A DNA stretch of 64,000 nt from a virus (IMGVR_UViG_2744054962_000001), one strand, 5' to 3'. Positions 5,178 through 56,643 are shown, counted from the stretch's first letter. Notes: a model not told the origin generated them from the sequence alone. Numbers and translations: made by a program.

Positions 5178-5191
5178 AAAACAATTTGTTT
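5178..5191 (+). promoter_or_regulatory. Conserved palindrome AAACAAnTTGTTT upstream of extended SD (family member)
   Basis: AAACAATTTGTTT 20 bp upstream of ATG 5211; same motif recurs at 17422, 32912, 45666, 55884, 56613. Confidence 0.4.
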
Positions 5192-5210
5192 AAAAAACAA
5201 AGGAAAGCAC

Positions 5211-6551
5211 ATGACCGAACTTTGCCATACAGGACGCGGGCTGTCCGAAGAGTTTGATGAAGATTTCCAGAACAGACTGACGGCATATTTTTGTCGTGAT
5301 CACGAGTTTCTTACTCGTGCGGGAGATCTGGTTGTGCCTAGCCAATTTGCCAATGCGGCCAATGCCATATTGGTTAATATGGTTTCGGGCTATTACCGTA
5401 TGTACAAGAGCGCGCCCTCTTCATCTGCAATTCTGGATATGCTTAAGCGTGCGAAACGCGATAAGACTATCCGTGAGGAACTATTCGCCGATGTTGTTGC
5501 TGCGTTTAAGCGCATCCTTGCAGAAAAATTGTCCGATACCTCGTACATGGTTGACCAGGTATCAACCTTCGCAAAAAGCGTAGCGTTTGATGATGCTCTG
5601 ATTAAGGCTGCTGAACTGAAAGAGAAAGGCGACTTTCAGGGGGCGATGGCAATCATGGCCAAGGTTCAGCAGATTGGATCGAACGAAGCGACCGGAATCT
5701 ATGACTACTACACCTCCGCAAGTGAGCGATTGAAAGCGCGTGAATATGAGGCTTCAGAGGAGTATGTACCAAACAGTATTACAACTGGACTCCCTCTTCT
5801 CGATAGGTTGCTGTACCAAAAAGGCTGGGCAAAGCGCGAAATGGTGCTCTTCATGGGGTTCGCTAAATCCGGTAAATCGACCGCAATGGGTGAGTTTTCC
5901 ATAAACGCAACGCTTGCTGGCTACAATGTTCTGTATCTCTCGCTGGAGGTTCACACCACCATTTTATCCGACCGTTTTGATGCAAGATTGTCGGAGACGG
6001 AAATGTCCAAGCTGGTGGAACGGCGCGATGAGGTTCATCGTAAGTTGGCAGAGTTGGGAGCCACGAAGGGGATTGGTAGTTTGTGGGTTGTTGAGCGTCC
6101 GTCAGGAAGTATGTCACCGGCAGACCTGGATCGTATGCTTAACAGCATGAAAGCCAATGGCATGGTGCCTGACATGGTTGTTGTCGACTACGCAGATTTG
6201 ATGCGTGCCAGTTATGACCTTCGTGATGATCGCGCCAACATTCGTAGTATCTACACCGATTTACGTGCTCTTTATGACAAGCATAACGTTGCTGGTATCA
6301 CGGCGTCGCAAACAAACCGTGAAGGTGGCGCGTCAGAAGTTGCCACAATGATGCACGCTGCCGACAACATCGAAAAAGTACGTATTGCTGACCTGGTAAT
6401 AACGATCAACAAAACCGAAGAAGAAGAAGCGAAAGGAGAGGCTCGTCTCTACTTTGCTGGTTCGCGTAACCAGCAGGGAGGGATCAGCATTCGCGTTAAA
6501 CAAAACCTCGAACAAATGCGCTTCATTGAGCGAATCTTAGACGTTACCTAA
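5211..6551 (+). CDS. Replicative DNA helicase (DnaB-like / RecA-fold)
   Basis: Walker A GFAKSGKST, Walker B-like VVVDYADLM, 446 aa, immediately upstream of primase. Confidence 0.7.
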   Translation: MTELCHTGRGLSEEFDEDFQNRLTAYFCRDHEFLTRAGDLVVPSQFANAANAILVNMVSGYYRMYKSAPSSSAILDMLKRAKRDKTIREELFADVVAAFKRILAEKLSDTSYMVDQVSTFAKSVAFDDALIKAAELKEKGDFQGAMAIMAKVQQIGSNEATGIYDYYTSASERLKAREYEASEEYVPNSITTGLPLLDRLLYQKGWAKREMVLFMGFAKSGKSTAMGEFSINATLAGYNVLYLSLEVHTTILSDRFDARLSETEMSKLVERRDEVHRKLAELGATKGIGSLWVVERPSGSMSPADLDRMLNSMKANGMVPDMVVVDYADLMRASYDLRDDRANIRSIYTDLRALYDKHNVAGITASQTNREGGASEVATMMHAADNIEKVRIADLVITINKTEEEEAKGEARLYFAGSRNQQGGISIRVKQNLEQMRFIERILDVT

Positions 6552-6557
6552 AAAATA

Positions 6558-6580
6558 AGCGTGGAGAACACCTCCACGCT
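6558..6580. terminator. Hairpin after helicase gene
   Basis: AGCGTGGAG aacac CTCCACGCT inverted repeat. Confidence 0.4.
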
Positions 6581-6632
6581 TGATTCATTGGTGAAACAAC
6601 TTTTCTTTTGCCAAACCACAAAAGAAAAACAC

Positions 6633-7814
6633 ATGAGCCTTTATGTTATATCAACATTTAGGTTGGTCACAATATTGCCTGTTAAAAGTGGAATTATCGT
6701 GAGCGAGCTGAAAGAGCTAATTACCGAATTAGATTTTGAACAATGGTTGGATACTGAAGGTATCGTTTATCGACGTGGAGGCGTGAGTACTCGCGGTCGT
6801 GAAGTGAATATCAAGGAGTGTCCGGTATGCGGCAGCTCCAACTGGAAGGTATATTTCAATCTGACCAGTGGCGTCGGTAAATGCTTCGCTGGTGATCATC
6901 CCGAAGAGATTCAGTTCAATAAGCTGGTCTTCCTCAAGCACTACAGCGGTAAATCACGACGACAGTTCGAGGAATATGTGCAGAACGCTCTTCTTTCCCA
7001 GGGGTGGGCACCAAAGAAAGAAGAGATAGTGCTTGCAAGCACAGTCGAGTTAGAGGGACCAGTTGCACTCCCTCGTCATTACGATCTTCCTATAGATGGC
7101 CATCTTCCAGACTATCTGGTTGAACGAAATATATCGCCTGAAATGGCAAAGTATTTTGACCTACGATACTGCGTCGAAGGCAAGCACGCTTATGTAGATC
7201 CGTATACAGATCAGGTTAAAGGACAGATTTTCGATATGCGAATACTGATACCGGTTTACGATCTGGATGGGGTAATGAAGACATTTCAAGGACGAGACAT
7301 TACCGGTACAGCAGAACGCCGCTACCTCTTCCCTATGCAGCTGCCGGCGTCGGGTAAGTTTCTCTACAACGGCCACAACGCAGTCGGGAAACAAACAGTC
7401 GTTGTGTGTGAAGGGGCATTTGACGTAATGGGCGTGAAGCGAGCCATCTTCGACGAAAAGACGCTGAGGGATTATGTAGAGCCAATTGGCACGTTCGGGA
7501 TGCACTTGTCCGGAAATATGAATGAGGACGCTGAAGATCAGTTGGGCGCGTTCCTGACGCTCAAGGCGCGTGGATTACGCAACGTCATCATGATGTGGGA
7601 TAGCGAGAAGCAAGCGATCCGCAACACCATGTCGGCGGCCAAACGCCTCACCAGCATCGGACTAAATGTCAAAGTGGCCTGTCTGGGCGAAGAAGGTCTC
7701 GACCCCGGCGACGCGACGCCAGAGCAGATCCTCAAAGCCTATTATCGTGCCAAGCCTTACTCCAAACAGCTGGAGTTAAAATGCAAAGTGCTCGGTATCA
7801 AGTCACTCGTGTAG
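6633..7814 (+). CDS. DNA primase (DnaG-like zinc-binding domain plus TOPRIM)
   Basis: CPVCGSS...CFAGDH zinc-ribbon-like motif and TOPRIM-like VVVCEGAFDVMG; ATG at 6633 preceded by AAAAGAAAAACAC motif; ORF track start 6561 overlaps the upstream hairpin. Confidence 0.65.
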   Translation: MSLYVISTFRLVTILPVKSGIIVSELKELITELDFEQWLDTEGIVYRRGGVSTRGREVNIKECPVCGSSNWKVYFNLTSGVGKCFAGDHPEEIQFNKLVFLKHYSGKSRRQFEEYVQNALLSQGWAPKKEEIVLASTVELEGPVALPRHYDLPIDGHLPDYLVERNISPEMAKYFDLRYCVEGKHAYVDPYTDQVKGQIFDMRILIPVYDLDGVMKTFQGRDITGTAERRYLFPMQLPASGKFLYNGHNAVGKQTVVVCEGAFDVMGVKRAIFDEKTLRDYVEPIGTFGMHLSGNMNEDAEDQLGAFLTLKARGLRNVIMMWDSEKQAIRNTMSAAKRLTSIGLNVKVACLGEEGLDPGDATPEQILKAYYRAKPYSKQLELKCKVLGIKSLV

Positions 7815-7815
7815 T

Positions 7816-17453: not shown

Positions 17454-19562
17454 ATGTCTAAAAAACGTTCCATCAAAGAGGTTCAGGACTTCCGTGACAG
17501 TGTAAAACGAGTAGTCGCTCTCCTTTCAGGTAAAAACATCCCTGTTGCAGAACGAGGGGACGACGCTTATGTACGCTATAACGATGATGGAGAGCCAATT
17601 CTCGTAAACATCCCATCAATCCCGGATAACGCAACACCGGCATTGATGAATGCTGTGCGCGGATTTCTCGATCATGAGGTTGCTCACATTTTGTTTACCG
17701 ATATTCGTGTGTCCAACAAAATGAGAGAAAAAGGACGCGTTCCTTCCTGGTCGCTATGGAATGCCTTAGAAGACGTGTTCATCGAGCGAAAAATGGGTCA
17801 GGTCTTTAACGGAACAAGACGTAATCTGATGGCAACTCAGCGCCTTATAATCGAAAAAGTCTTTAAACCAAAGGCTTCAGAGGCTATTGCTTATTGTGGC
17901 AAAGATCAGCGCGCGCTTTTTCTAAACTTCTTTCTCTGTCCGGTTGTAAGAGCCTGGGATGGCCAAGCACCGTTCGTAGATTTCATGGATGAATATTGGC
18001 CTGTCATTGAGAAACCAATTTCATTATTAAAAGAACATGGTATCGATGTGGCCGTGCGTAACATGTCTTGCACCGAGGATTGTGTAAAGGTGGCTGCGAC
18101 CATAGCTAAGATCCTCAAAGACACTGAAAGTGAAAGCAAAGGTAAGGAGTCAGCTCCGGGAAAAACTTCCGATCCTTCAGACGCTGACCAGACGGATGCC
18201 TCTGGAGAAAACAATGAAGATAACGAAGATCATGAGACACCCTCAGCGTTAGATAATCACAAATCTATCAAATCAGAATCACACAGTAAGCACAAACATG
18301 ATAATAATGACAGTGATGATTTAGATAATTCTGAATCATCAGAAACAATATTCGATGATACAGAAAATGATAAAGAGGTATCAGATTCTGATGCTTCTGA
18401 TAACGCGGCGTCAGAATCATTAACCGCTGACCACGAAAAAAGAAAAACGACAGAAGACGGCTCTTCAGATATTCCAACTCCGTCAAAAATGAGTCTGGAA
18501 GAGGCTTTAGAGGAGCTGGATAGCATAGAAGATGAAGTCGGAGGCATGACAGAAGATGCTCTATCCGAAACGATTAAAAGCGAGTTAACAGAAAGCTCGA
18601 AAAGCGAATACAGGCCATACAATCGCTCATACGACTTCATCGGCTCGATTGATCAGGCAGAAGCCCATATCAAACGGCTTATTAAAACATTCTCCGATAT
18701 TGATTTAGGAGGATGTCCAATCAGCCGCTATCGCATCGTTCCTGAAGGCAACCAGCTCTTCGACAAATATATTGAAAAGCATCTTTCGTCAGGTGTTTCG
18801 TCGACGCTGGCAAAAGACCTGGAGCGAGCAATAGCAAGCAGAAACAGAGTTCAGTTTATACCGGGCCAGCGTCGGGGGCGCATTCATGGTTCTAGTATCT
18901 ACAGATTAGCAATGAATGATGATCGCGTGTTTCGTAAAAAAGAAGAATCTAAAGCCGTTAACGCCTGTGTTCAACAAGTGATTGATTTATCAGGTTCAAT
19001 GAGGGGTATAACGATACAATTGGCTCTTGCAAGTGCATATACCATCGCCGATGCCCTTGATCGAATAAATGTTCCCAACATTATCACCGGCTTCACTACA
19101 TTTGGTAGTCATATGGCGGCAGGAGAACTTAAGGCTGTCAAGTATGAGTTCTCTCGCTTTGAATCTTTAATGCTACCTATCATCAAAAATTGGAATGAAA
19201 AGGTAAATTCTCGCGAAGTTCGCTCACGTATGGGGTGCGTAGGCTACACATTCCCACTTCTTAATAACGTGGATGGTGAAAGCATAGCCAGCCTTGCATC
19301 GTTATTTTCCGGTCGCATGGAGGACAGGAAGATCATGCTTGTTCTGAGCGATGGCGAGCCGTGGGCTGTTGGGAGAGGTTTTGACGCTCATTTGCGTTCG
19401 GTTGCGAAGCAAATTGAAACGCAGACTGACATTGATTTGATGGCAATTGGCATCATGACTGACGCACCGGAGAGATTTTACTCAAATCATGCCCTGGTAA
19501 CGAGCGTTGATAGTCTTGGTTCATCTGTAGTTACTGAACTATCTCGTATCATTTTAAAGTGA
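17454..19562 (+). CDS. CobT-like protein with acidic Ser/Asp-rich linker and C-terminal vWA domain
   Basis: MIDAS-like DLSGSM motif in C-terminal third; long acidic low-complexity middle; upstream of AAA+ CobS-like gene. Confidence 0.55.
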   Translation: MSKKRSIKEVQDFRDSVKRVVALLSGKNIPVAERGDDAYVRYNDDGEPILVNIPSIPDNATPALMNAVRGFLDHEVAHILFTDIRVSNKMREKGRVPSWSLWNALEDVFIERKMGQVFNGTRRNLMATQRLIIEKVFKPKASEAIAYCGKDQRALFLNFFLCPVVRAWDGQAPFVDFMDEYWPVIEKPISLLKEHGIDVAVRNMSCTEDCVKVAATIAKILKDTESESKGKESAPGKTSDPSDADQTDASGENNEDNEDHETPSALDNHKSIKSESHSKHKHDNNDSDDLDNSESSETIFDDTENDKEVSDSDASDNAASESLTADHEKRKTTEDGSSDIPTPSKMSLEEALEELDSIEDEVGGMTEDALSETIKSELTESSKSEYRPYNRSYDFIGSIDQAEAHIKRLIKTFSDIDLGGCPISRYRIVPEGNQLFDKYIEKHLSSGVSSTLAKDLERAIASRNRVQFIPGQRRGRIHGSSIYRLAMNDDRVFRKKEESKAVNACVQQVIDLSGSMRGITIQLALASAYTIADALDRINVPNIITGFTTFGSHMAAGELKAVKYEFSRFESLMLPIIKNWNEKVNSREVRSRMGCVGYTFPLLNNVDGESIASLASLFSGRMEDRKIMLVLSDGEPWAVGRGFDAHLRSVAKQIETQTDIDLMAIGIMTDAPERFYSNHALVTSVDSLGSSVVTELSRIILK

Positions 19563-19657
19563 ACAAAACAGCCTTAACGATAAGTAACCACTTACGATAG
19601 ATAATGATATATTTATATAAGAAGTTGAACGCTCATTAGAAAACAAAGGAAAAACGC

Positions 19658-20893
19658 ATGACTACTACTGCACTGCAAAATGAAAAAAATCCTTCTGATT
19701 ACCTTGTTTGCAAATGGTGCGGAAAATCATTTCACTATTTTAAGTCCCATGTAGCCAATGGTAATTGCGAGGGCATTCCTGAGTCAGTAAAAGATGCCGA
19801 TCCTGACACCGTACTGAAAATGTACACAACACAGTTTCCAGATGAGCCAACGCTATCGAAAAAGGCACTTGATGCAATTCAAGCTAAACGTGCCGAGCAA
19901 AAAAGCGAAATGACCAAATCATCTGGCGTGACCAGTAGCCCAGGCTACACAGGCACAGTTGAGTACAAGACAGATCTGGTCGCAGCTCACGAACTGCTAA
20001 ATGTAACGGTGAAAGAACTCGGAACAAAACGTGGGACGCCGCTCATGGTTAGCGTCAACGTCAATACGCCGTTTCCAGAGTTCGTTCCAGAAGTGAAGAA
20101 GGGCTACGTATATGGCGACTTCGAACTGATCAAAGACATTTTCATGATGCTTGAACTTGGCATACCTGGCTATTTGTGGGGTCATGCAGGAACAGGCAAA
20201 TCTTCATTGCCTACACAACTATGTGCTTTGCTCAATCGTCCGTTAATCCGTGCCCAACATACAGCATCAATGGAAGAGGCTCATGTTACGGGACAAATTC
20301 TGGCGCGTGATGGCTCTACGTATTTCGAGCCTGGCTTGCTTGCGCTCGCAATGAAGCATGGCTGGGTTTACCTCGCGGATGAATACGACTTTGCGTTTCC
20401 ACAAATTCTTGGCGTGTATCAGCCAGTGCTGGAAGGTGAAGCGTTAGTCATCAAAGAGGCAACTCCAGAATGGCGTCGCATTACTCCGCATGAACGGTTT
20501 GCTTTCATTGGCACTGGCAACACGAACGGATCTGGTGATGAAACCGGCTTGTACCAGGGTACAAACATCCAGAACGCCGCGAACTTTTCGCGTTTTGGCA
20601 TCGTTTCGAATGTGAAATACATGAGCAAAGAGGCAGAGATCAACATGTTGATAAATGCCGGTATCGTGGATGAATACGCAGAAAAGATGGTTAAGTTTGC
20701 CGGTATCGTTCGCGATGGATACGAAGAACACCTTATCAGTCAGCCAATTGGCCCTCGTGAACTTTTGTTGTCGGCCAAGATTGGAATGATGCGAGGCGAC
20801 TTTGTGACAGGTATTGAGCGTTCTTTCATTAACAAACTCCCTTCAGCTTCTGCACAAGCGGCTCGTGAAGTTGTTCAAAAAATATTTGGTTGA
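19658..20893 (+). CDS. CobS-like AAA+ ATPase (MoxR-type)
   Basis: Walker A GHAGTGKSS, Walker B-like VYLADEYD, 411 aa. Confidence 0.6.
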   Translation: MTTTALQNEKNPSDYLVCKWCGKSFHYFKSHVANGNCEGIPESVKDADPDTVLKMYTTQFPDEPTLSKKALDAIQAKRAEQKSEMTKSSGVTSSPGYTGTVEYKTDLVAAHELLNVTVKELGTKRGTPLMVSVNVNTPFPEFVPEVKKGYVYGDFELIKDIFMMLELGIPGYLWGHAGTGKSSLPTQLCALLNRPLIRAQHTASMEEAHVTGQILARDGSTYFEPGLLALAMKHGWVYLADEYDFAFPQILGVYQPVLEGEALVIKEATPEWRRITPHERFAFIGTGNTNGSGDETGLYQGTNIQNAANFSRFGIVSNVKYMSKEAEINMLINAGIVDEYAEKMVKFAGIVRDGYEEHLISQPIGPRELLLSAKIGMMRGDFVTGIERSFINKLPSASAQAAREVVQKIFG

Positions 20894-21099
20894 TCGTGCG
20901 TAAAGGATGTTTCGGCTCTCTTATCGCTGCTTCTGAAACTGGTAAGGCTTGTCTGGTATGTCCAGACAAGCCCGATTGTCACCAATCAGCAAAAGAAGTT
21001 GCGATTTCGATGTATGGGAAGTTCGTAGGCTTCCCCAATGACAAAATCAAAAAAACCATAAAGGTAAAAACACATGAAAGCACTGATGGTTCGAACTGA
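20890..21099 (+). CDS. Small Cys-rich hypothetical protein
   Basis: CLVCPDKPDC motif; overlaps both neighbours. Confidence 0.3.
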   Translation: MIVRKGCFGSLIAASETGKACLVCPDKPDCHQSAKEVAISMYGKFVGFPNDKIKKTIKVKTHESTDGSN

Positions 21100-24000
21100 C
21101 TTCTCACTTGGGGAGTCGGCTCTAAAAGCAGAAAACGCGGTGAAGATTGCCAGAGAAGCTGGCTACACCGCTGTAATTTCAGCAGATAGCATGAATATTG
21201 CGAGTGTTATTCCACTACAACGTGCCGCTGGTGACGACATGGCGGTTATTTGTGGTGTGAAACTAAATATCGTTGATGATCCTACATACGAGCACCGGGC
21301 TAAACTTGCTAAAGAATCTATGAGATGTATGGAATCATTAGAGCGGGGACGTAACTACTCGTTTACCGCTCTAATTAAAAATGAGCAAGGATATCGCGAC
21401 ATCTGCGAACTAATGACGGTGGCCAACACACGAGAACAGTTCTACTTTGTACCGCGTCTCTCGCTCGAACAGTTGGTTTCTACATATGCCAAAGGCAACA
21501 TCATCCTGCTCACTTCCGACATCGGTAGCGTGTTCCAACGCAACGATTTTGCAAAAATCATAAGCTCACTGATTACAGCGGGCGGGAAAGACAACTTCTA
21601 TAGCGTGGTTTATCCGCACCCTACCCCATTCTACGACCAGATTAACGTCCGAGCGATGAAAGTAGCCAGCGCACTGAAAATAGAGCCAGTAGCGTTCTAT
21701 CCCGCTTATTACGAATCGATCGACGATGCAGACATTAAAGACATTGCGCACATGGTTACGAACAACATAAAAATCGACCAGCCGCATCGTCTGCGTATCC
21801 CCCACCAGCGAGATAACGCCATCAATGGTCGTCGCCATCTCCTTGAGGCGCTTAAAGCCTTCTCCGTTCGCATGGATGTGCCGGTAACAGCTGCAATGGC
21901 CTCAACAACGCAGGACTCCATTATCGATGCCTGCACATGGCGCTGGCATGAATTGCCACCAGCACTGCCCAAGATGGCAGACGACGAACCTGCAACGCTG
22001 ATGAAACTGGCTGTTGCAGGGCTGCGTAAACGTCTTACCACAAAAGAGTTTGGATACACACCACCTGCTTCTGAGAACAGGGTTTATGTTGAGCGGCTAA
22101 AGTACGAAATGAACACGCTGACTCGCCTGGGATTTTGTGGTTACTTCCTGATGGTACGCGATCTGATGAATCACAGCCGTGAAACTGGCATTCCTGTCGG
22201 GCCTGGTCGTGGTTCCTCTGCCGGTTCTCTGGTGGCGTGGTGCATAGGCATAACCAACGTCGACCCAATCCGTCACGGTCTTCTGTTTGAGCGTTTCATC
22301 AACCCTGAGCGTCTCGACTTGCCGGATGCGGACTTGGACTTCAGCCAGGCACGTCGCCATGAGGTGATCGAGTATCTGAATGAACGCTACGGCGAAGATT
22401 ACGTTGCAGGCATTCCGAACTTCACCTACCTGGGCGCAGCCTCTGCACTACGTGACACCGCTCGTATTTATGGTGTGGAGTCCGCAGATATGGCGGTATC
22501 AAAAGAACTGAAGAACGTCGAGGATGATAGCCTTCCATTGGAAGAGCTGCGCGAACAACTGGCAAGTCTCGACAAATACGCAACAAAATATCCTGATGCA
22601 TTCAATGCAGCCTGCAAGTTACAAAGCCTTATGCGTGGCTTTGGTAGACATGCGGCAGGGATGATTGTAGCAGGTGTTCCTCTGACAGAACGTACACCGG
22701 TTGAGCGCCGTGGTGACGCGCGTTGTATCGCATTTGACAAGCGTTACTGCGAGGCTATGGGCCTAATTAAGCTGGACGTGCTTGGCCTGGCAACTCTCGA
22801 TTTGCTCGATAGTGCAAAACGCTACATAAAAGAGAACACAGGTGAAGATATCAATCTTGATGCCATTTCTCTTGAAGATCGCAAGGTGCTGGATGGTTTT
22901 GCTGCAGGGTATACACAGGGCGTATTCCAGCTGGAGTCCGGCCCCATGCGCAAGCTGCTTAAAGATCTAGGCGGTGGCATTGAGCCAATGAGCTTTAAAA
23001 CCGTTGTCGCCACGACCGCACTCTTCCGACCTGGCCCGATCCAATCCGGCATGTTGGACGACTATGTCTCCGTGGCCAAAGGCTTCATGGCTCCACATTC
23101 AATTCATCCGCGTCTTGAGGAAGTCACCCGGGAGACTAATGGTGTTTTGCTCTATCAGGAACAAATCATGCAAAGTTCCCGAGTACTTGCCGGGTTCTCT
23201 ATGGCCGAAGCAGACGCTCTGCGTTCCGCTATCGGTAAAAAGAACATGGATAAGATGAAAGCGATCGGCAGCGATTTTGTAGAACGAGCACAAGCAGGCT
23301 GGGTGACACTGTCACTCAAAAATGGAGGCACTGTAGAGGTTCACAAACACGCAAAACTGGATTGCTCAGACGGTAAGCGTAGAAGCTACAGCGAGGCTAT
23401 TAGTGACGGCATAGACTACGTGGAGATCGTCTCTGAACAAGAAGGTCTCAGTAAGGAAAAAGCCCAAGAAATATGGGACGCCTTTGAGAAGTTCGGTGGA
23501 TATGCCTTCAATAAATCACACTCCGTTGCTTATTCTTTAATCAGTTATCAGTCTATGTGGTTAAAGACACATTACCCTGCTGAGTTCTTCGCTGCTGCGC
23601 TCACCATTCTGGGCGAGGATAAGCACCAGGGGCTGGTTAAGGATGCGCTGACCTATGGCATTCGCGTATTGCCACCAGACGTTAACGTGTCATCTAACCG
23701 AATCGAGATCCGCACGCTTGAAGATGGCAGCCAGGTGCTGTATGCGCCATTCTCTGCTGTGAAAGGCTGTTCTGAAAATGGTTGTCAGGCAATTATGCGT
23801 GCGCGTGAGAAAGTTGGTGGCAAATTCGAGTCAGTGGCACAATTCGATGAAGCGGTCGAGAAGCGTGCATGTAACAGTCGTGTACGCGAGTCGCTTCATA
23901 AAGTAGGGGCTTTTGCGTCAATTGAGCCAGGCAGTCTGCCAGCAACTGATCCTGAACGACTGCGCGACCAGGCTGAGCTGATGGGCAATCTCATCATTGA

Positions 24001-24580
24001 CGCTGTTAAAGCATCACGTCCGTTCGAAATGAATCCTAAGCGTTCTGCCGAAATCAACGTACTCATGACACGTATGGCGGCTGAAATGGGCTTGGGTGAG
24101 GAGTTGATACGCCCGACTATTGGTATTAAACCCAAAATCATGATCATTCTGGACAATGCGAACGGCAATGACGCTCGTACCGGCTACTTCATGGAGAACG
24201 GATACGACGACTTTAAGGCAAAACTACTGACAGTTGGAGATCTGCGCATGGGCGATCTTTATGTCACGGGTGTTTGTAAGAAGGTTAAGGACAAAGAGAA
24301 AGACTATACCAAAGACGAGATAGGCCAGTTCACAGACTTTATGCGGGAAGAAATTAATCTTGTACGACCAACCTACATTTTGACGTGTGGTAGTCGTTCA
24401 ACCGCACTATTTAACAATAAGAGTAAACCATCAGATCTGATTGGTCGTAAGGAGTACTTCCCAGAGCTTGATGCAACCGTCTTCTACGGATTTAACCCGA
24501 ATATCCTGTACTTCCGACCGGAAGAAGGAGAGCGACTGGAGGCCATTCTGGCTGATATCGCGGAGACAATAAATAAGTAA
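21074..24580 (+). CDS. dnaE: DNA polymerase III alpha subunit (DnaE-type, PHP domain)
   Basis: 1168 aa; conserved blocks GYFLMVRDL, PVGPGRGSSAGSLVAW, LFERFINPER, GYAFNKSHSVAYSLISYQ match bacterial DnaE. Confidence 0.8.
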   Translation: MKALMVRTDFSLGESALKAENAVKIAREAGYTAVISADSMNIASVIPLQRAAGDDMAVICGVKLNIVDDPTYEHRAKLAKESMRCMESLERGRNYSFTALIKNEQGYRDICELMTVANTREQFYFVPRLSLEQLVSTYAKGNIILLTSDIGSVFQRNDFAKIISSLITAGGKDNFYSVVYPHPTPFYDQINVRAMKVASALKIEPVAFYPAYYESIDDADIKDIAHMVTNNIKIDQPHRLRIPHQRDNAINGRRHLLEALKAFSVRMDVPVTAAMASTTQDSIIDACTWRWHELPPALPKMADDEPATLMKLAVAGLRKRLTTKEFGYTPPASENRVYVERLKYEMNTLTRLGFCGYFLMVRDLMNHSRETGIPVGPGRGSSAGSLVAWCIGITNVDPIRHGLLFERFINPERLDLPDADLDFSQARRHEVIEYLNERYGEDYVAGIPNFTYLGAASALRDTARIYGVESADMAVSKELKNVEDDSLPLEELREQLASLDKYATKYPDAFNAACKLQSLMRGFGRHAAGMIVAGVPLTERTPVERRGDARCIAFDKRYCEAMGLIKLDVLGLATLDLLDSAKRYIKENTGEDINLDAISLEDRKVLDGFAAGYTQGVFQLESGPMRKLLKDLGGGIEPMSFKTVVATTALFRPGPIQSGMLDDYVSVAKGFMAPHSIHPRLEEVTRETNGVLLYQEQIMQSSRVLAGFSMAEADALRSAIGKKNMDKMKAIGSDFVERAQAGWVTLSLKNGGTVEVHKHAKLDCSDGKRRSYSEAISDGIDYVEIVSEQEGLSKEKAQEIWDAFEKFGGYAFNKSHSVAYSLISYQSMWLKTHYPAEFFAAALTILGEDKHQGLVKDALTYGIRVLPPDVNVSSNRIEIRTLEDGSQVLYAPFSAVKGCSENGCQAIMRAREKVGGKFESVAQFDEAVEKRACNSRVRESLHKVGAFASIEPGSLPATDPERLRDQAELMGNLIIDAVKASRPFEMNPKRSAEINVLMTRMAAEMGLGEELIRPTIGIKPKIMIILDNANGNDARTGYFMENGYDDFKAKLLTVGDLRMGDLYVTGVCKKVKDKEKDYTKDEIGQFTDFMREEINLVRPTYILTCGSRSTALFNNKSKPSDLIGRKEYFPELDATVFYGFNPNILYFRPEEGERLEAILADIAETINK

Positions 24581-24587
24581 TAAAGAA

Positions 24588-24610
24588 AACCCGCCTGTTG
24601 GCGGGTTTAT
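24588..24610 (+). terminator. Intrinsic terminator after dnaE
   Basis: AAACCCGCC tgtt GGCGGGTTT. Confidence 0.6.
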
Positions 24611-24883
24611 AAAGAATTATGGCGCTTGTTGAGGAAGTCACTCCTCTTACGCACTTTGTTTTGCCATGCCGGCAGTTAGCTTCTGCCTTTGACTATTCAT
24701 GCGGCAACCCCGCATTTCGCCACAATGGGCAATTCACTTTTATGGAATAAACTGGCCGTTGTGTCGATTTAATTAGCATGGCCTTACCATGCTAATTTAT
24801 TCAACTTGTACAATCCTACAAATCTATCCACTCAGGCTTACACCGTCTTCGTTATTGTAGAAATGAGGATCATCAGCGTTGAA

Positions 24884-25099
24884 TCAGCTTAGAGCAACGA
24901 CATTTGCTGCTGCTGGGCCTTTAGCACCATTCTCGATAGAGAATTCGACCTGCTGGCCTTCTTCCAAAGTGCGGAAATTATTACTCTGAATTGCCGAAAA
25001 ATGTACAAAAACATCTTTACTGCCATCAGCAGGAGAAATAAAGCCAAAGCCTTTATCAGAGTTAAACCATTTTACTAAACCAGTCATTTTATTAGACAT
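24884..25099 (-). CDS. Cold-shock protein (CspA family)
   Basis: [21 protein letters not shown]...[10 protein letters not shown] cold-shock domain with RNP motifs; ORF-track N-terminal extension is probably 5-prime UTR. Confidence 0.8.
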
Positions 25100-25403
25100 A
25101 GATATTACCTTCTTAATTTTGTGAGCCACATAGTGCGGCGAGAATTTGATCTGTATAGATTGGGACTTACTTAGGCACTTAAGGAGGAGGCTCACGAAGA
25201 AGGGAAATCAGAAGATAACACTGAACTGAGACTGCTTTACTAAAACTGCTTACATAAGGTCTGTCTTGCAAACCAACGATGCTATTAACGCATACCCCTT
25301 CTTTTCATGCAACCTTTATTTTTCAAAGATAACTAATTTTTGTCACCATTGGTTTAGTAAACGTTAACGAACCAGACGATGCCAGACACCTTTACAGAGA
25401 ACA

Positions 25404-29382: not shown

Positions 29383-31722
29383 ATGGCAAAAGGAAAATCC
29401 GCACTGGCACTTGCTCTGAAAAAGAAAATCGGTAGCAACGACGAAATTCAGAAAGTAACTCATTGGATTGATACAGGCTTTCCACCGTTAAACAAAGCTA
29501 TTTCTGGTCGTTACGATGGCGGCTTCCCATGTGGTCGTATCGTCGAAGTATTCGGTCCTCCAAGCGCGGGGAAATGTGTTACCGCAGACACCATGCTGCT
29601 GACGGAGCGTGGAATGGTAACAGTGAAAGAGTTGTTTGAGATTGAAGGGTACAAAGCGACATGCACTACTCGCGATGTAGAGCATAACGTTGGACTCATC
29701 AATGAAAATGGCGTGATAGAGAAGACCTCACACCTGACATGGAACAACCGTCGCAAATTCAAGCGTATTAAGCTGGCATCAGGCGGTTATATCGAGGCTA
29801 CGTTCCGTCACCCAATCCGTGTGGTTGACGACTTAGGTAATGTCGTCTGGCGACATGCTGAAAAAATCAGTGTAGGCGACACGATTCCTTCAATGGTTGG
29901 CACACATCAATTCGGCGATCAGCACCTGGATGCCAATATCGCAAAACTGATGGGCTATTTAATTGCTGACGGATACGTGGCCTCTGAAAATTCAGTGAAT
30001 TTTTCTAACACAGATCCTTTCATCAAGGATGAGTACTACCGCCTCATTTCGCTGGTATCAGACAAGATGCCAGTTACGAGAAAACATAACGGCTCGGAAG
30101 ACCATGTGCTGTTTAGCAAAGAGGTGCGTTCGCTGCTTTTTAAAGAATATGGTCTGGAGTATGAGAAAGCTGCTGGCAAGCAGGTTCCGTTGAGTGTGCG
30201 TCGCGCCAATAGCGAGGCTCAAATTGCATTCCTTCGCGGCTACTTTGAGCTGGAATGCCACGTCAATGATGGTCGCTGCATTGAGGTTGTGAGCGCGAGT
30301 GGGCTGCTGCTACAGCAAATTCGCCTCATGCTCCTGAATCTGGGGATTACGTCAACTATCTCTGAAAAACACGTCGCGGGTTATGAAAATACATATTACC
30401 GGCTGTCATTCAGTGGCTCTAATTACGACCTTTTTCTGTCAACGATTGGTTTCGAATCTCCGGCACGTTTATCAGTGGCAACCAAACGGGACATTGGTTT
30501 TGACCGCACTTACTCAGGCTATGTTCCGCACATCAGCGGCTTAGTGAAATCACTCTACGAGTCGCTCACCAAGACCACCCGTGAAGACTACGCTCTGGTA
30601 GACCACGTTATTGGCCGCGGCGATCGTGTCGGAATAGACAAACTGCGAGAAATCTATGTCTCCTTCATTGGCAGAAAGAATCGTTTTAACGAGCATCTGT
30701 TTGCACAACTGGCAGCGGTAATTGGCTCTAACTTGTTCTACGACGAAGTCGTGGCTATTGAGGAAGGTGAAGCACCAACGTTCGACGTAGCGATGCCGGA
30801 AACACACTCTTTCTGGTCTAACGGGATTATCAGCCACAACACATTCCTTGCAACAGCAGCGATGATCTCCGCTCAAAAACAAGATGGTCTGGCGGTATTC
30901 CTCGATCATGAAAACAGTTTTGACGTTGGCCTGGCTGTAGCCAATGGCCTGAACGCAGATGAGGATGACGGTCAGTGGGTATACAAGCAGCCTGATACCT
31001 TCGAAGACTCTGTAGAGTTGATCGGCACAATACTTAAATTGGTACGTGATGAAGAGCTTATCCCCGAATCAGCACCTATCTGTATCGTGGCTGACTCTCT
31101 TGCGTCTATGGTTCCGAACTCCAAAGCCGAGAAGTTCGAAAAGATGGCTGAAGGCACTGCCAAAGACAAAGATCAGCTAAACATGAACGACAATACGGCA
31201 CTGGCTCGTGCGACGAGTGCGAACTTCCCTACTCTGGCTTTGTGGGCACGCAAATACAACGCCTGCATCATCTTCTTGAATCAGGTTCGCACAAAAATCG
31301 GTGTAATGTTTGGCGACCCTACTACGTCGCCAGGTGGAGATTCACCGAAGTTCTACGCATCTGTACGTATCCGTCTTGGTGCATCGGTGATGAAGGATGG
31401 TAAAGAGAAGATCGGTCAGGACGTAGGCGCAGAATGCATCAAAAACAAAGTTGCACCACCGTATGGCAAATGCACCTGGAAATTCTACTTCGATCCTACT
31501 CGTGGCCTCGACGTTATCGAGTCGCTCGTCGAGTACATGCTGGAAGAAGGATACCTGCCAAAGAACGCCAGCGGTCGAGTAGAAATTGGTGACAAGAAAT
31601 ACACCAAATCACAGATCGTCGAGATGTATCGGGAGAAGCCACTGGCTGAAATCATTGCGGCTTTGCAGGCAATCGACGACCGAAGAGCAAAAGACAACCC
31701 CACCGAGTCAGTAGAAGAGTAA
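29383..31722 (+). CDS. RecA/UvsX-like recombinase interrupted by an intein
   Basis: P-loop GPPSAGK split from TFLATAAMISAQ by 422 aa; extein about 357 aa. Confidence 0.75.
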   Translation: MAKGKSALALALKKKIGSNDEIQKVTHWIDTGFPPLNKAISGRYDGGFPCGRIVEVFGPPSAGKCVTADTMLLTERGMVTVKELFEIEGYKATCTTRDVEHNVGLINENGVIEKTSHLTWNNRRKFKRIKLASGGYIEATFRHPIRVVDDLGNVVWRHAEKISVGDTIPSMVGTHQFGDQHLDANIAKLMGYLIADGYVASENSVNFSNTDPFIKDEYYRLISLVSDKMPVTRKHNGSEDHVLFSKEVRSLLFKEYGLEYEKAAGKQVPLSVRRANSEAQIAFLRGYFELECHVNDGRCIEVVSASGLLLQQIRLMLLNLGITSTISEKHVAGYENTYYRLSFSGSNYDLFLSTIGFESPARLSVATKRDIGFDRTYSGYVPHISGLVKSLYESLTKTTREDYALVDHVIGRGDRVGIDKLREIYVSFIGRKNRFNEHLFAQLAAVIGSNLFYDEVVAIEEGEAPTFDVAMPETHSFWSNGIISHNTFLATAAMISAQKQDGLAVFLDHENSFDVGLAVANGLNADEDDGQWVYKQPDTFEDSVELIGTILKLVRDEELIPESAPICIVADSLASMVPNSKAEKFEKMAEGTAKDKDQLNMNDNTALARATSANFPTLALWARKYNACIIFLNQVRTKIGVMFGDPTTSPGGDSPKFYASVRIRLGASVMKDGKEKIGQDVGAECIKNKVAPPYGKCTWKFYFDPTRGLDVIESLVEYMLEEGYLPKNASGRVEIGDKKYTKSQIVEMYREKPLAEIIAALQAIDDRRAKDNPTESVEE
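29575..30840 (+). mobile_element. Intein with LAGLIDADG homing endonuclease domain inserted in the RecA P-loop
   Basis: Begins with Cys after GPPSAGK, ends SHN followed by Thr; LAGLIDADG-like blocks LMGYLIADGYV and FLRGYFELECHV. Confidence 0.7.
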
Positions 31723-31752: not shown

Positions 31753-31814
31753 TCTCTTGAAAATATATAAGTGCTTACTTATTATTTTCACATAACAACC
31801 ACATAGGAAAACAC

Positions 31815-32015
31815 ATGATCAAAATCTATCTATTGGCAGTAGCCACAGGCCTTTCAGTGGCTCTCATCTACGGTTTACTGGTTCCGTCGCTGATTTCTAC
31901 CAAGAGTGATTTAGCCGTCATGTTTGGAGTTATCGTTGGTTTTGGTGCTCCTGTAATCGGTCTTATTGCTGGTCGTAAGTTTATCAACTCATTAATCAAA
32001 GCAAAGGGGAAATAA
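31815..32015 (+). CDS. Small two-helix membrane protein
   Basis: 66 aa, two hydrophobic helices; directly upstream of SPFH lipoprotein. Confidence 0.45.
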   Translation: MIKIYLLAVATGLSVALIYGLLVPSLISTKSDLAVMFGVIVGFGAPVIGLIAGRKFINSLIKAKGK

Positions 32016-32865: not shown

Positions 32866-32890
32866 AGGCGTCCAGTTGGACGCCTTTTTT
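32866..32890 (+). terminator. Intrinsic terminator (GGCGTCC family)
   Basis: AGGCGTCC agtt GGACGCCT followed by TTTTTT. Confidence 0.6.
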
Positions 32891-32940
32891 ATCGCAATTA
32901 TCTTATTAAGAAAACAATTTGTTTAAAAGGATAAGAAAAC

Positions 32941-33366
32941 ATGACAGCTATTAAGAAACTCTACGATGCCGCAAACGTGGCTCTGGATGTTATTGATGAT
33001 GAAGTAGCAAAAGGCTTTCCTGAACCTGATTGGGCGCATCAGCTACGAAACGCTATCGCAGAAATGACCCCACCAGATCCAACCCCCGACGAGACAGACT
33101 GGCAGCGATTCATCCGTATGTACGCTCAGGAAATAGGTCCAACGCCAACGGCAGAGCAGGCAATGCTGCTGAAATACTTCAAAGAGGCGGGAGAGGATTT
33201 ACCAATTGATGACTCAGCATATTGGTTCCACTGCGCATGGCGTAAGTATGACGTGATATTCACACAAGGCATGGGAAGCAAAGATATGGTTGTGTGGCAT
33301 CTACTCCATATAGACACAGCCGTTGACAGAGTTATTGAACAGTTTTTCCCTAAACAAGAAGATTGA
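32941..33366 (+). CDS. Hypothetical protein
   Basis: 141-aa ORF preceded by AAACAATTTGTTT motif and AGGA-containing RBS. Confidence 0.45.
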   Translation: MTAIKKLYDAANVALDVIDDEVAKGFPEPDWAHQLRNAIAEMTPPDPTPDETDWQRFIRMYAQEIGPTPTAEQAMLLKYFKEAGEDLPIDDSAYWFHCAWRKYDVIFTQGMGSKDMVVWHLLHIDTAVDRVIEQFFPKQED

Positions 33367-33421
33367 TCGCCTATTCATAACTAACAAAATAAGTAAACAC
33401 TAACCACAAAAGGAAAAACAC

Positions 33422-33697
33422 ATGAGAGTTTTAGTTCGAATCGTTACCAGCACTGTCTATGACGTGTTTCCACTTTTTATGATCAAAGTCGATGGCCTTA
33501 ACGACGAAGAAACTGACGCGCTGATCCAGCGTACTCTTGTTGAATATACAGGTCATGACGCTGATTCAGTGATGGTTGATGATGATGGTGTTTGTTGGCA
33601 TAACGGCAACTGTTGGTACGTAGAAGAGACTCAACAAATCAGTGATGAAGATGCCGAACATCTTGAGCGTATTTTAAGCATCAGCACTTTTGAGTGA
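33422..33697 (+). CDS. Hypothetical acidic protein
   Basis: 91-aa ORF preceded by AAAGGAAAAACACATG motif. Confidence 0.45.
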   Translation: MRVLVRIVTSTVYDVFPLFMIKVDGLNDEETDALIQRTLVEYTGHDADSVMVDDDGVCWHNGNCWYVEETQQISDEDAEHLERILSISTFE

Positions 33698-52618: not shown

Positions 52619-52693
52619 CGTCCCCCTACTGAAAATAAAGCCCATAGAGAGCTTTATAGTGCTGGGTAAGCCAATCACATATCCAGCACCACA

Positions 52694-52740: not shown

Positions 52741-52801
52741 TGATTGTCAGACATAAAATCAAATGCAAAAATAGGTAATCACTTACCTATCGAGAAAGAA
52801 G

Positions 52802-53395: not shown

Positions 53396-53416
53396 TTTGT
53401 TCTGGCGTCTGTAATT

Positions 53417-53480: not shown

Positions 53481-53581
53481 ATATCAGAGACTCCCAGACC
53501 TGAACACCACTACAGAATCCACTAGAACCCCTTCCCAGACGCTTTAAAATCGATTTTATGAACCACTTTAAGGAAACCAAC

Positions 53582-53812: not shown

Positions 53813-54395
53813 TAGATAAGTACAAACTATTCATAAAGTGAATTGTAAGTGCTAAGATCTGATAGTTTCCAGTCGTAGACTGGAGACTCGACCTGATGGG
53901 TGGGGGTAAGCGTCACTGGCGTCAGGTTTAAAAAAGCTCACTACCAGCGTAGAACCGGTGCCGTTTAGGTGTCGGGGAAGGGGGAACCAAAGTGAGCAGA
54001 GACAAGGGTCACTTTATGATTGTCGAGTCTGGGGTGTTTCGAGAGGTTGAATCCAGTACTCCCCTTCATAAAGTGTGGGAAGATCTCGGTTCTGGGGTGC
54101 TGTCATCCATAACTTCCCAAGTCTAAGCTGGCAGTAGACTTAGACCATAGCTTTTCAGGTTATGAAACGACCAGGTTGGTGAGGAATTTTATACTCACCT
54201 CCCTGGGAGAGTATTACCTGAAAAGACAACCTCTCACTTCGTTCGAGGTGAACTTCACTCACTTCGTTCGTTCAGTTCAGGTTTATAAAAAACCTGTTCT
54301 GGGAAGTAATTTGTTTATTTTAATAATTATTAACACGCACGCGTGTGCGCACGCGCGAGGAAAAAATCGGCGCGGCGCTTGATTCAGGAGTTTAT
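53813..54395. other. ORF-poor structured region (candidate ncRNA or regulatory region) ending in a 25-bp alternating purine-pyrimidine tract
   Basis: No ORF of 60 aa or more on + strand across about 360 bp; multiple local hairpins; direct repeat TCACTTCGTTCG x2; Z-DNA-prone ACACGCACGCGTGTGCGCACGCGCG at 54333-54357. Confidence 0.3.
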
Positions 54396-54989
54396 ATGAC
54401 GACGAAGACACCAGCCCGATCGCAAGCAAAAACTCGCAAAAAAGCCAAAAACAAAAATTCTCCCCGCACCAATCCAACAACGCCTGTCGTAGAGTTCAAT
54501 CCCCAGCTCAAAACCGTGAAAATCTTTAGTGATGGCTCTTGCCTTAAAAATCCGGGTGGCCCGGGCGGTTACGGTATCGTTCTCCAGTATCGTGGTGAGG
54601 AACGCGAGTTCTCAGATGGTTTTCATAGCACCACCAATAACCGCATGGAGATGATGGGCGCACTTATCGGGCTGGAGCGTTTGAAATATCCATGCAACGT
54701 TATTTTGTACTCTGATAGCCAGTATCTGAAAAACGGCATGACACAGTGGATGAAATGGTGGAAACGTAATGGATGGATGACTTCTGATAAAAAACCGGTA
54801 AAGAATGTTGATCTGTGGAAACGTCTGGATGAGGCCGCAAGTCGACATAATGTTCGCTGGAAGTGGGTTAAAGGTCACGCCGGGCATCGTGAAAATGAAA
54901 TATGTGATCGACTCGCGAAGATCGCAGCTTTTTCAGCAGCAGATATGCCTCACAAGAAAGATATTGGTTTTGTTTATAACAAGTGGTAA
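54396..54989 (+). CDS. rnhA: Ribonuclease HI with basic N-terminal extension
   Basis: [49 protein letters not shown] match RNase HI; SD CAGGAG upstream of ATG 54396. Confidence 0.85.
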
Positions 54990-55134
54990 GTAAGTGTTTA
55001 CCTATCATTTTAAATCATGTATCTTATCAGCGTCAGGATGACAATGTGTCGGTAAGACACAGTTCCAGGATGGAACGAGAAAGGCGGCTGGCAATCGCCA
55101 GCCGCAACTCTTTCTGACACTGGATGGAGTCCAC

Positions 55135-55629: not shown

Positions 55630-55638
55630 GGCGGTTGT

Positions 55639-55827
55639 ATGAACTGGTTTTCAAATCACTTTGGAAAAATTTGGCTGGCAATTCTTGCCCTCATGGCCGC
55701 CGGTTGGGTATCGAACATTATAAAACTTGTTTGCTCTGGCGATCTCCAGTTTCAGGCTGGCATGACCTTGGCTCGTGTAGTTGGGATTTTTGTTTTTCCA
55801 GTCGGTTCGGTACTTGGTTATTTCTGA
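55639..55827 (+). CDS. Small membrane protein
   Basis: 62 aa with two hydrophobic helices. Confidence 0.35.
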   Translation: MNWFSNHFGKIWLAILALMAAGWVSNIIKLVCSGDLQFQAGMTLARVVGIFVFPVGSVLGYF

Positions 55828-55920
55828 CGGCTGTTAGTGCATATGCATTGACCATCTTTGCGTAAGCAATTTATGAAACTATAAAACAACTTGTTTTGAC
55901 AAATAACAAAAGGAAAACAC

Positions 55921-56346
55921 ATGTTAGGTTTCTTCAAAAAGAAAACTCGTAAAGCAGTTATCGAAGTCAAAAAAATGGAGAACCGTGATGCGGTTGAGGC
56001 CACCGTGTGGGGCGCGTACATGATCTCCTATGCCGACGGCACATGTGACGCAAAAGAAATTGCCATTCTTGAGAAGACAATTGCAGCTCTGCCTGCGTTT
56101 TCTCCGTTTGCTGGTGAAATTGCCCAAATGAGCGCCAATATCCGTGCTCGTTACGAAGCGTCCCCTCGTTCTGCTAATGCACAGGCTATTCGTGAGCTGT
56201 CTGATATTGCGGGTACTCCAGAGGCGGTCGATGTTCTGTGTCTGTGCCTTGATATTGCCGATCAGGATGGCATTGGTGAACAAGAAGAGCAGGCACTGAA
56301 AAAGATCGCCCAGGCGCTTCAGTTGTCACTGGATGCTTATCTCTAA
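55921..56346 (+). CDS. Hypothetical protein, possibly TerB-like
   Basis: 141 aa, all-helical acidic protein; TerB resemblance is by overall pattern only. Confidence 0.35.
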   Translation: MLGFFKKKTRKAVIEVKKMENRDAVEATVWGAYMISYADGTCDAKEIAILEKTIAALPAFSPFAGEIAQMSANIRARYEASPRSANAQAIRELSDIAGTPEAVDVLCLCLDIADQDGIGEQEEQALKKIAQALQLSLDAYL

Positions 56347-56504
56347 TGCTTGAGAGATTCCGGCTTGTGATCGTCATTGCTCTTCTGGTGATGGCGGTGT
56401 TGGTGGATTTTACGGGAAAGATGATGTCTGTCATTTCTGATGGCGTCCTCATTGGTCTGGCGATCTACTTCGCTTATCCGCTAGTCCGTAAAGCAACGTG
56501 TTAA
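56346..56504 (+). CDS. Small membrane protein (52 aa)
   Basis: ATG overlaps upstream stop (TAATG); two hydrophobic helices; followed by hairpin terminator. Confidence 0.3.
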   Translation: MLERFRLVIVIALLVMAVLVDFTGKMMSVISDGVLIGLAIYFAYPLVRKATC

Positions 56505-56506
56505 TA

Positions 56507-56533
56507 ACAAGGGCCAAATGGCCCTTGTGTTTC
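56507..56533 (+). terminator. Hairpin terminator
   Basis: ACAAGGGCC aaat GGCCCTTGT followed by GTTT. Confidence 0.55.
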
Positions 56534-56643
56534 GTTGACCGAAATAGAGAGTTTGCACCTTTACGTTTAGCTTGCTCCCCTTTTATGCCACATCACAATA
56601 AAGCCAATAAGAAAACAACTTGTTTAAGAATTAGGAAAAACAC

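Follow-up and report, generated by a model that had tools for sequence, protein, structure and literature searches.

What is the short palindrome that recurs in front of genes along the viral DNA stretch IMGVR_UViG_2744054962_000001, and what would read it? The stretch, 64,000 nucleotides long and called the window here at its full length, belongs to an SSU5-like phage-plasmid. In a megablast search with positions 17000-25000 it is about 99% identical to Escherichia phage Cyrano (pLF82, OV696614.1), about 80% identical to Salmonella phage SSU5, and about 76-80% identical to Klebsiella phage-plasmids. It carries the SSU5-type replication and nucleotide-metabolism module, with genes for a DnaB-like helicase, a primase, CobT/CobS-like proteins, DNA polymerase III (Pol III) alpha, a gp32-like single-stranded DNA-binding protein, ribonucleotide reductase (RNR), and a TerB-like protein; the replication and recombination genes gp32, UvsY, and UvsW of the element are T4-like. 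The first ~10 kb and the last ~6 kb of the window differ from Cyrano, and a type I restriction-modification system lies at the 3' end. The palindrome, which we call motif A, has 13 bases (AAACAAnTTGTTT) arranged as a 6-1-6 dyad. A preliminary description of the window had read it as a binding site for a dimeric regulator or as a specialised promoter element. From its sequence context we judge it somewhat better than an even bet that motif A is an operator acting as double-stranded DNA, at which a dimeric regulator encoded by the element binds and probably represses lytic promoters.

Exact copies of the palindrome (AAACAANTTGTTT) occur five times in the window (at 1952, 5179, 32912, 55884, and 56613), against 0.01 expected from 100 dinucleotide shuffles of the window. 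With up to one mismatch there are eight copies, adding those at 3495, 17422, and 45664, against 0.42 expected from such shuffles, none of which reached eight. At two mismatches the signal is lost in chance (11 copies versus 6.75 expected). The observation in the preliminary description is thereby confirmed. Seven of the eight sites lie 23-42 nt upstream of start codons on the + strand, and the genes behind them encode the parA-like protein, the DnaB-like helicase, the CobT-like protein, DUF7238, RNR beta, the TerB-like protein, and orf189. All six starts that had been named as preceded by the palindrome do have it, with distances from its centre to the ATG of 26 nt (5211), 26 nt (17454), 23 nt (32941), 38 nt (45708), 31 nt (55921), and 25 nt (56644); at 17454 and 45708 the copy has one mismatch. 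Two sites are additional to that description, one at 1952 (centre 1958), which lies outside the range it covered, and one at 3495. The sites and the features next to them are as follows.

1952-1964, motif A, exact (AAACAAGTTGTTT), centre 42 nt before the ATG of the parA-like gene 2000-2668
3495-3507, motif A with one mismatch (AAATAAATTGTTT), inside or beside open reading frame (ORF) 3070-3831, no clear downstream start, status uncertain
5148-5174, + strand, predicted sigma-70 promoter of the helicase gene: TTGATC (5148-5153), 15-nt spacer, TAATAC (5169-5174)
5179-5191, motif A, exact, before the DnaB-like helicase gene 5211-6551, centre at about +5 of the predicted start
6594-6606, degenerate copy with two mismatches and the left arm alone intact, after a terminator-like hairpin and before the primase start region
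17401-17409, + strand, predicted extended -10 (TGcTACATT) of the CobT-like gene, with a hairpin just upstream (17368-17400)
17422-17434, motif A with one mismatch (AAATAATTTGTTT), before the CobT-like gene 17454-19562, centre at about +13 of the predicted start
32867-32890, + strand, intrinsic-terminator-like hairpin GGCGTCC-AGTT-GGACGCC with a T-run, directly 5' of the 32912 site
32912-32924, motif A, exact, before the DUF7238 gene 32941-33366
45664-45676, motif A with one mismatch (TAACAACTTGTTT), before the RNR small-subunit gene 45708-46850
55884-55896, motif A, exact, before the TerB/TciA-like gene 55921-56346, with TTGCGT-N16-TATAAA (55858-55885) upstream
56613-56625, motif A, exact, before orf189 (56644-57213), with a -10-like CACAAT at 56594-56599, centre at about +14 of the predicted start

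The promoters predicted in the window would place the centre of motif A between about -2 and +14, and its overlap with the core promoter or start holds for these sequence-predicted promoters. At the helicase gene the hexamers are conserved in the alignment as TTGATC-N15/16-TA(A/G/C)(T/G)A(C/T), with equivalents at the same place in SSU5 (TTGATC-N16-TAGTAT) and in Klebsiella pJN2-26 (TTGATT-N16-TACGAT), and the centre of the palindrome falls at about +5. The CobT-like gene has TGnTAnATT (aligned with TGaTAAATT in SSU5 and TGtTATTTT in pJN2-26; centre at about +13) and orf189 has CACAAT (about +14), while at the RNR beta and TerB-like genes the -35/-10 pairs put the centre near the predicted start; the 45664 site is preceded by a hairpin (from 45610) and then by TTGTAA-N16-TAAGAT (45637-45664). 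The parA-like site is flanked by the -10-like sequences TATAAG (1945-1950) and GATAAT (1970-1975). Terminator-like hairpins stand directly 5' of several motif A sites, so that new transcripts must begin there; next to the 32912 site, the hairpin at 32867-32890 leaves 50 nt within which a new transcript must start.

A motif-anchored alignment of distinct sites from the family reveals two contexts. In the 'downstream' layout (130 sites), TGnGATAAT is followed by 13 nt (aACaCCAAcAAGa), AAACAAnTTGTTT, an A, and the Shine-Dalgarno sequence, and the centre of the palindrome lies near +14. A -10 hexamer matching at five or more of six positions ends 20-21 nt before the centre at 89 of these 130 sites, and the TG of an extended -10 is present at 55 of the 66 whose -10 ends at -20. 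The 'upstream' layout (89 sites) consists of a GC hairpin, motif A, and TctRcctttt...TGnGATAAT; at 28 sites the -10 ends 31 nt past the centre, i.e., the centre is near -38. Some promoters bear sites of both kinds, and across eleven genomes or loci adjacent sites are separated by 24-25 bp in 11 cases and by 51 bp in 14, never by another distance. These layouts speak against the palindrome being a specialised promoter element: in the best-defined cases its place is either -38 or a point 3' of an extended -10 of ordinary type (TGnGATAAT), and from gene to gene it shifts relative to the predicted start. The leader of the terminase/late operon, which lies outside the window (Cyrano 57-94, SSU5 56-93), has promoter-like sequence and two motif A sites 25 bp apart, and a GC-rich terminator-like hairpin with a T-run separates the two sites from terS. 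To judge by its sequence, this arrangement looks like late-operon control by antitermination.

The preliminary description had joined the palindrome to an extended Shine-Dalgarno sequence as the two halves of one composite signature. The translation-initiation string AAAGGAAAAACACATG is itself enriched, with three exact copies in the window and nine at up to two mismatches against 0.08 expected.

33409-33424, + strand, exact copy of AAAGGAAAAACACATG
38656-38671, + strand, exact copy of AAAGGAAAAACACATG
45695-45710, + strand, exact copy of AAAGGAAAAACACATG
6620, 19645, 21061, 27068, 55908, 56631, and about 31800-31817, close variants of AAAGGAAAAACACATG

The starts that had been listed as sharing it (6633, 19658, 27081, 31815, 33422, and 38669) all bear the string or a close variant, the copy at 6633 being without the GG of the Shine-Dalgarno sequence. 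The string resolves into AAAGGA, AAAACAC, and ATG with a spacing of 7, within the 5-9 nt upstream of the start codon expected for an AGGA-type core. CAC directly precedes the ATG in 12 of 108 Cyrano genes on the + strand versus ~1.6% expected. The string is found at first genes of operons, where the leaders have essentially no structure, and AACCACAAAGGAAAAACAC often prolongs its Shine-Dalgarno sequence on the 5' side. The composite signature, however, falls apart: the string occurs with the palindrome and without it (at 19658, 21074, 27081, 31815, 33422, and 38669), and the gap between the two ranges from 2 to 23 nt. AAAGGAAAAACAC-ATG is a separate ribosome-binding context, with a strong AAGGA Shine-Dalgarno sequence and a 7-nt A/C-rich unstructured spacer, and is ordinary biology. 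The leader of phage T7 gene 10 (TCTAGAAATAATTTTGTTTAACTTTAAGAAGGAG) resembles ctagAAAACAATTTGTTTAA...AGGA at 5171-5205 of the window.

Motif A is conserved well beyond the window. Whole-genome counts at up to one mismatch are 23 in Cyrano, 26 in SSU5, 17 in pJN2-26, and 20 in Klebsiella oxytoca pCAV1015-111, whose helicase is only 68% identical. Of 50 IMG/VR loci retrieved for the surroundings of a marker gene, 48 contain the motif and two short ones do not; it also occurs in Nissabacter, E. kobei, and Y. pestis pMT. Among the elements of E. coli, Salmonella, Klebsiella, Nissabacter, and Y. pestis (pMT) the motif sequence is identical and the flanks have diverged. At the helicase, CobT, TerB-like, and orf189 loci, the 13 bases and the AG just upstream form a conserved island in aligned but diverged intergenic DNA, and the motif is unchanged among relatives whose other proteins share just 39-70% identity. 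It is absent from the equivalent regions of Moellerella, Xenorhabdus, Morganella, and Photobacterium (helicases 52-63% identical in these four) and of Pectobacterium Drgb1; the range of the motif is that of elements of Enterobacteriaceae and Yersiniaceae, and it is absent in the Morganellaceae and Pectobacterium relatives examined. We sought co-variation of the motif with a regulator in ever more distant relatives and found none that could be scored, since the motif in these relatives is either identical or absent. In a pattern scan of IMG/VR irrespective of gene content, contigs with multiple hits were all ~57-111 kb, the range of SSU5-like elements, and lone hits were at chance level. A separate observation concerns the ~110 nt before the parA-like gene (1890-2000), which are almost invariant among the E. 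coli, Salmonella (SSU5), and Klebsiella (pJN2-26) elements, far above other intergenic regions; a centromere, or some other regulatory element that surrounds motif A, may lie there.

Whether the palindrome acts as DNA or as RNA was approached through its pattern of variation. Over 268 distinct sites the tolerance of mismatches is mirror-symmetric, with positions +/-5 and +/-2 essentially invariant and +/-1 and the centre free. The seven leaders of the window fold with -0.6 to -5.2 kcal/mol (z-scores of -1.4 to +0.6 versus shuffles), which is no excess stability, and a hairpin formed by the palindrome is not a consistent structure among them. With the central three positions left aside, only 7 of the 73 single substitutions keep a standard pair, compensatory changes are found in none of 32 sites with two mismatches, and no Rfam family matches at motif A sites. 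Folding z-scores, the scarcity of pair-preserving changes, and the lack of compensatory changes speak against a structured RNA or leader hairpin. About 40% of the distinct sites lie outside any leader, either upstream of a -10 (near -38) or after terminator hairpins, some of them between convergent genes. Mirror symmetry, absence of a hairpin, absence of covariation, and the many sites outside leaders together make it more likely that a symmetric dimer reads the site as double-stranded DNA.

Expression data for the prophage state are available from a transcriptome table of the LF82 lysogen that lists every Cyrano gene, with a background median of 9.8 (PMC9928086, S1 table). Genes behind motif A are at background: 21 for the helicase, 7.8 for CobT, 5.7 for DUF7238, 12.9 for RNR beta, and 7.0 for the TciA-like gene (PMC9928086). 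Early genes with near-consensus TGnGATAAT promoters reach 6.7-25 in the lysogen (PMC9928086), and the silence of such promoters argues for active repression. Ciprofloxacin induces Cyrano 39-fold. Two transcripts of the same table stand out in their own right. The 44-codon ORF CYRAN_81 (53992-54120) has a value of 117 against the background of 9.8 and is 91-98% conserved among genera; its high expression and conservation suggest that it may be a small RNA. The ORF at 14585-15139 on the - strand (CYRAN_43) is by far the most abundant transcript of the lysogen, at ~7000.

The reading of motif A as the binding site of a dimeric regulator, the part of the preliminary description that stood, accounts best for its dyad, its mismatch tolerance, its position on promoters, its spacing, and its conservation; the transcription starts, the protein binding, and the sign of regulation we infer rather than demonstrate. 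Under this reading, about 20 copies of motif A per genome would sit on the core promoters of + strand transcription units of the lytic cycle. In the window these would be the units of parA, the helicase, CobT/CobS/Pol III alpha, DUF7238, RNR beta, TerB-like, and orf189, and outside it they would take in the terminase/late operon, at its leader, as well as a group of small early genes. Bound near +14, +5, or +1, a regulator would keep the polymerase from forming an open complex or from escaping the promoter; bound near -38 it would occlude the -35 region, and promoters with both sites, 51 bp apart, could be clamped cooperatively. The role would most likely be repression in the plasmid-prophage state or a coordinated shut-off, and one putative regulator most likely switches most lytic-cycle genes of the SSU5, pHCM2, and pMT1 relatives together.

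Several points weigh against an element-encoded repressor. All promoter positions are consensus readings, and the promoters of the window are weak and none was called by a promoter scan. Homologous promoter cassettes account for much of the fixed spacing, which may therefore reflect common descent or gene conversion and not function. The parA operon bears motif A, yet it is expressed in the lysogen at about 50-89 (parA 50; PMC9928086), and the silence of the other genes fits a missing activator equally well. None of the regulator genes on the - strand has motif A in its own promoter, and none of the candidate binders is a clean fit. Expression in the lysogen is seen for a helix-turn-helix (HTH) protein whose region has another palindrome, a ribbon-helix-helix (RHH)-like protein, and a protein of Hfq fold, the last two of which are also conserved. 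In the RHH-like CYRAN_117 family (92 aa, 114 in the lysogen), the residues predicted on the DNA-facing strand vary despite the identical motif.

The HTH gene at 16505-16891 (CYRAN_45), which the preliminary description had put forward as the regulator, is a poor candidate, because it has no homologue in SSU5, which has 26 sites, and because its own control region is without motif A. Homologues 37-56% identical occur in other relatives, some of them motif-less. The divergent region 16892-17142 next to it contains no motif A and instead has GGTAAGTGCTTACC and extra half-sites, as it does in pJN2-26. Phyletic pattern and control region make this protein unlikely as the binder of motif A. The CYRAN_113 family and the 88-aa CYRAN_123 family, both winged HTH (wHTH)-like, are silent in the lysogen, and their putative recognition helices are invariant even in motif-less Pectobacterium; conservation neither confirms nor excludes CYRAN_117, CYRAN_123, and CYRAN_113 as readers. 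For the small early proteins and the small candidates alike, neither Pfam nor PHROGs pointed to a function. The two ParB_N proteins of the family are at background in the lysogen (5 and 9.5), and nothing ties them to motif A.

Another candidate would read RNA. It is possible, but in our estimate unlikely, that motif A is an RNA operator, AAACAAnUUGUUU, in the 5' leader, bound beside the Shine-Dalgarno sequence by an FljA-family protein that blocks translation and/or triggers decay. Such a protein is encoded by every member of the clade (CYRAN_114; Cyrano 100780-101301, - strand, outside the window; match to PF03614 Flag1_repress at 1e-80), and its gene is a hallmark of the plasmid family, on about 830 plasmids (831 PLSDB records, 62 of them Yersinia). 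It is expressed in lysogens, at 18 in overnight LB and at log2 7-8 in other conditions (PMC9928086). The AlphaFold model (pLDDT 86) predicts a tandem pair of Hfq/Sm-like domains that score TM 0.7-0.84 against Hfq chains, and an N-terminal DITYGxPAEVWPRDY peptide is invariant. FljA was reportedly found by Yamamoto and Kutsukake in 2006 to bind fliC RNA and to repress its translation; to our knowledge its own site is not known at the nucleotide level. RNA binding and translational repression of the fliC mRNA are echoed in PMC2652032. The fliC leader of Salmonella and Citrobacter has CAAGUUGU, the inner core of motif A, 8 nt before its Shine-Dalgarno sequence, although this match (8 of 12 positions) is not significant alone. 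The 'downstream' sites are suitably placed between the predicted start and the Shine-Dalgarno sequence, 2-23 nt from the latter, but the sites outside leaders would be left unexplained, and transcription from the helicase, RNR beta, and TerB promoters is predicted to start within the left arm or beyond it. The score of the FljA-like protein tracks the motif, with 102 bits in K. oxytoca, which kept motif A, versus 33 bits in Pectobacterium Drgb1, where it is absent; this phyletic correlation, however, is a single clade split. Dyad symmetry and mirror-symmetric tolerance would be needless for a single-stranded RNA site, and neither a stable hairpin nor covariation was seen. We find it similarly doubtful that the FljA-family protein reads the palindrome, as leader RNA and/or DNA, as a master lytic switch of SSU5/pHCM2/pMT1-type phage-plasmids; in that case FljA, the flagellar phase-variation repressor of Salmonella, would be a domesticated copy of it that still recognises a CAAGUUGU core in fliC mRNA.

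The remaining explanations dispense with an element-encoded repressor altogether. There may be no dedicated binder, and the palindrome may be part of a mobile promoter/terminator cassette comparable to the PeSLs of T4-type phages, kept uniform by recombination or gene conversion, with the A/U-rich leader favouring translation. The small-gene region outside the window is indeed made of repeated units of hairpin, palindrome, TGnGATAAT, palindrome, and Shine-Dalgarno sequence, the spacing is quantised at 51 bp, and PeSLs are strong sigma-70 promoters with stem-loops that flank variable ORFs and mediate their shuffling (PMC2839356). At conserved replication genes, however, the flanks have diverged freely and the 13 bases persist, the motif is identical in relatives with other proteins only 39-70% identical, and isolated sites occur without any cassette; strict dyad symmetry is unneeded for recombination, and the near-consensus promoters are silent in the lysogen. 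We think this explanation improbable. We give as little credence to an activator site or specialised promoter element that turns on weak middle promoters. The window promoters are without a good -35, several are without the A at position 2 of the -10, and the downstream genes are off in the lysogen, but the motif has no fixed place with respect to the predicted promoter (-38, -24, about 0, +5, +14), most sites are downstream of the -10, and some of the promoters that bear it have a near-consensus extended -10 and should manage without an activator. Least credible, and in our view highly improbable, is recognition by a protein of the host, for example IHF or some other DNA-binding protein of enterobacteria, maybe tied to packaging. 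In its favour, the candidate regulators of the element all diverge and the motif stays invariant, the motif is confined to elements of Enterobacteriaceae and Yersiniaceae, both strands hold CAA-N4-TT, which resembles the IHF core WATCAANNNNTTR, and two copies lie just upstream of terS. Nevertheless, the A at -4, where IHF prefers T, is changed in one of 268 distinct sites, the IHF purine position is a T, IHF sites are asymmetric, and the Morganellaceae and Pectobacterium relatives without the motif have IHF too. Mismatches to the IHF consensus at T-at-3 and purine-at-13 in essentially all sites make IHF itself unlikely, and we know of no host factor with a site like motif A.

Besides motif A, another palindrome, GGTAAGnnCTTACC, is conserved in the family; its usual form is ATAGGTA-N6-TACCTAT with a -10-like TATnAn directly behind it. 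The window has six hits at up to two mismatches versus 1.33 expected, including the following.

16923-16936, GGTAAGnnCTTACC
38539-38552, GGTAAGnnCTTACC
43224-43237, GGTAAGnnCTTACC
52774-52787, GGTAAGnnCTTACC
54989-55002, GGTAAGnnCTTACC

The sbcD-like, nrdA, and dam-like genes are preceded by this palindrome, and the HTH control region contains it together with extra half-sites at 17043 and 17109. Both SSU5 and pJN2-26 also have it upstream of the portal and holin genes, and pJN2-26 has it upstream of the Ig-like gene too. GGTA-N6-TACC variants remain in the Morganella and Pectobacterium relatives without motif A. The layout recalls the Lpa-dependent late promoters of P1, and an 88-aa wHTH-like gene lies just before terS, as lpa does before pacA. 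The presence of at least two separate palindromic signals in the family suggests temporal gene classes.

Further features of the window lie apart from both palindromes.

13339-13583, + strand, three clustered tRNA genes, for which the Cyrano annotation gives Asn, Thr, and Ser
24859-25277, - strand, full-length Rfam cspA thermoregulator match (187 bits) between Pol III alpha and a HicAB module
29383-31722, + strand, RecA/UvsX-like gene, 779 aa in the window and in Cyrano versus 358 aa in SSU5 and pJN2-26
about 54330-54360, alternating GC stretch, CACGCACGCGTGTGCGCACGCGCG
58819-63804, - strand, type I restriction-modification cargo (hsdR of 1038 aa, hsdS, and the end of hsdM), absent from Cyrano at this place

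The thermoregulator match implies an unannotated cold-shock protein gene with a long leader, and the size difference of the RecA/UvsX-like proteins suggests an intein or inserted domain.

Few extrachromosomal elements in clinical Enterobacteriaceae are as common as the SSU5-like phage-plasmids; ~930 PLSDB plasmids carry the helicase of this element, and the family takes in the pHCM2-type plasmids of S. Typhi and Y. pestis pMT. How the silence and release of their ~100-kb lytic programme are controlled appears undescribed, and we found no description of motif A or of SSU5 operators in the literature searched. An invariant 13-mer on about 20 promoters could serve as a probe for the regulator, as a marker of the regulon in any relative, and as a target to induce or lock these elements.

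Among known systems, the PeSLs resemble the motif A units in being repeats of a strong sigma-70 promoter and a stem-loop that flank small variable genes (PMC2839356); they differ in that no palindromic operator is described for them, whereas motif A also stands alone at conserved core genes. The FljA/fliC system of Salmonella is alike in that the element encodes an FljA-family protein, many sites are near the Shine-Dalgarno sequence, and the fliC leader shares CAAGUUGU, but motif A is dyad-symmetric, has many sites outside leaders, and shows no RNA structure. The operators of phages 434 and lambda are likewise short dyad-symmetric sites that overlap the core promoter and are read by a dimer. 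The 434 operator is ACAA-N6-TTGT, whereas motif A contains ACAA-N1-TTGT, with ~20 dispersed sites in place of two clusters of three and with no linked cI-like gene.

Functionally closest are C1 of P1 and KorB/KorA of RK2. P1 too is a phage-plasmid in which a short repeated DNA signal precedes many lytic units, including that of a replicative helicase gene, which are off in the prophage. The C1 operators, however, are asymmetric 17-mers and not 6-1-6 palindromes, and no C1 homologue was seen on the SSU5-like element. P1 has at least 45 transcription units, with early expression under C1 (PMC10695390). The KorB operator OB of RK2 is, as motif A is, a 13-bp 6-1-6 palindrome (TTTAGCGGCTAAA) scattered over the replicon, and KorB operators give coordinated global repression of the RK2 backbone genes. 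Copies of OB are found ~39-40 bp upstream of starts and elsewhere on RK2. The sequence of OB is nevertheless unrelated to motif A, and KorB is a ParB-type CTPase clamp; motif A differs from both systems in sequence and probably also in its reader.

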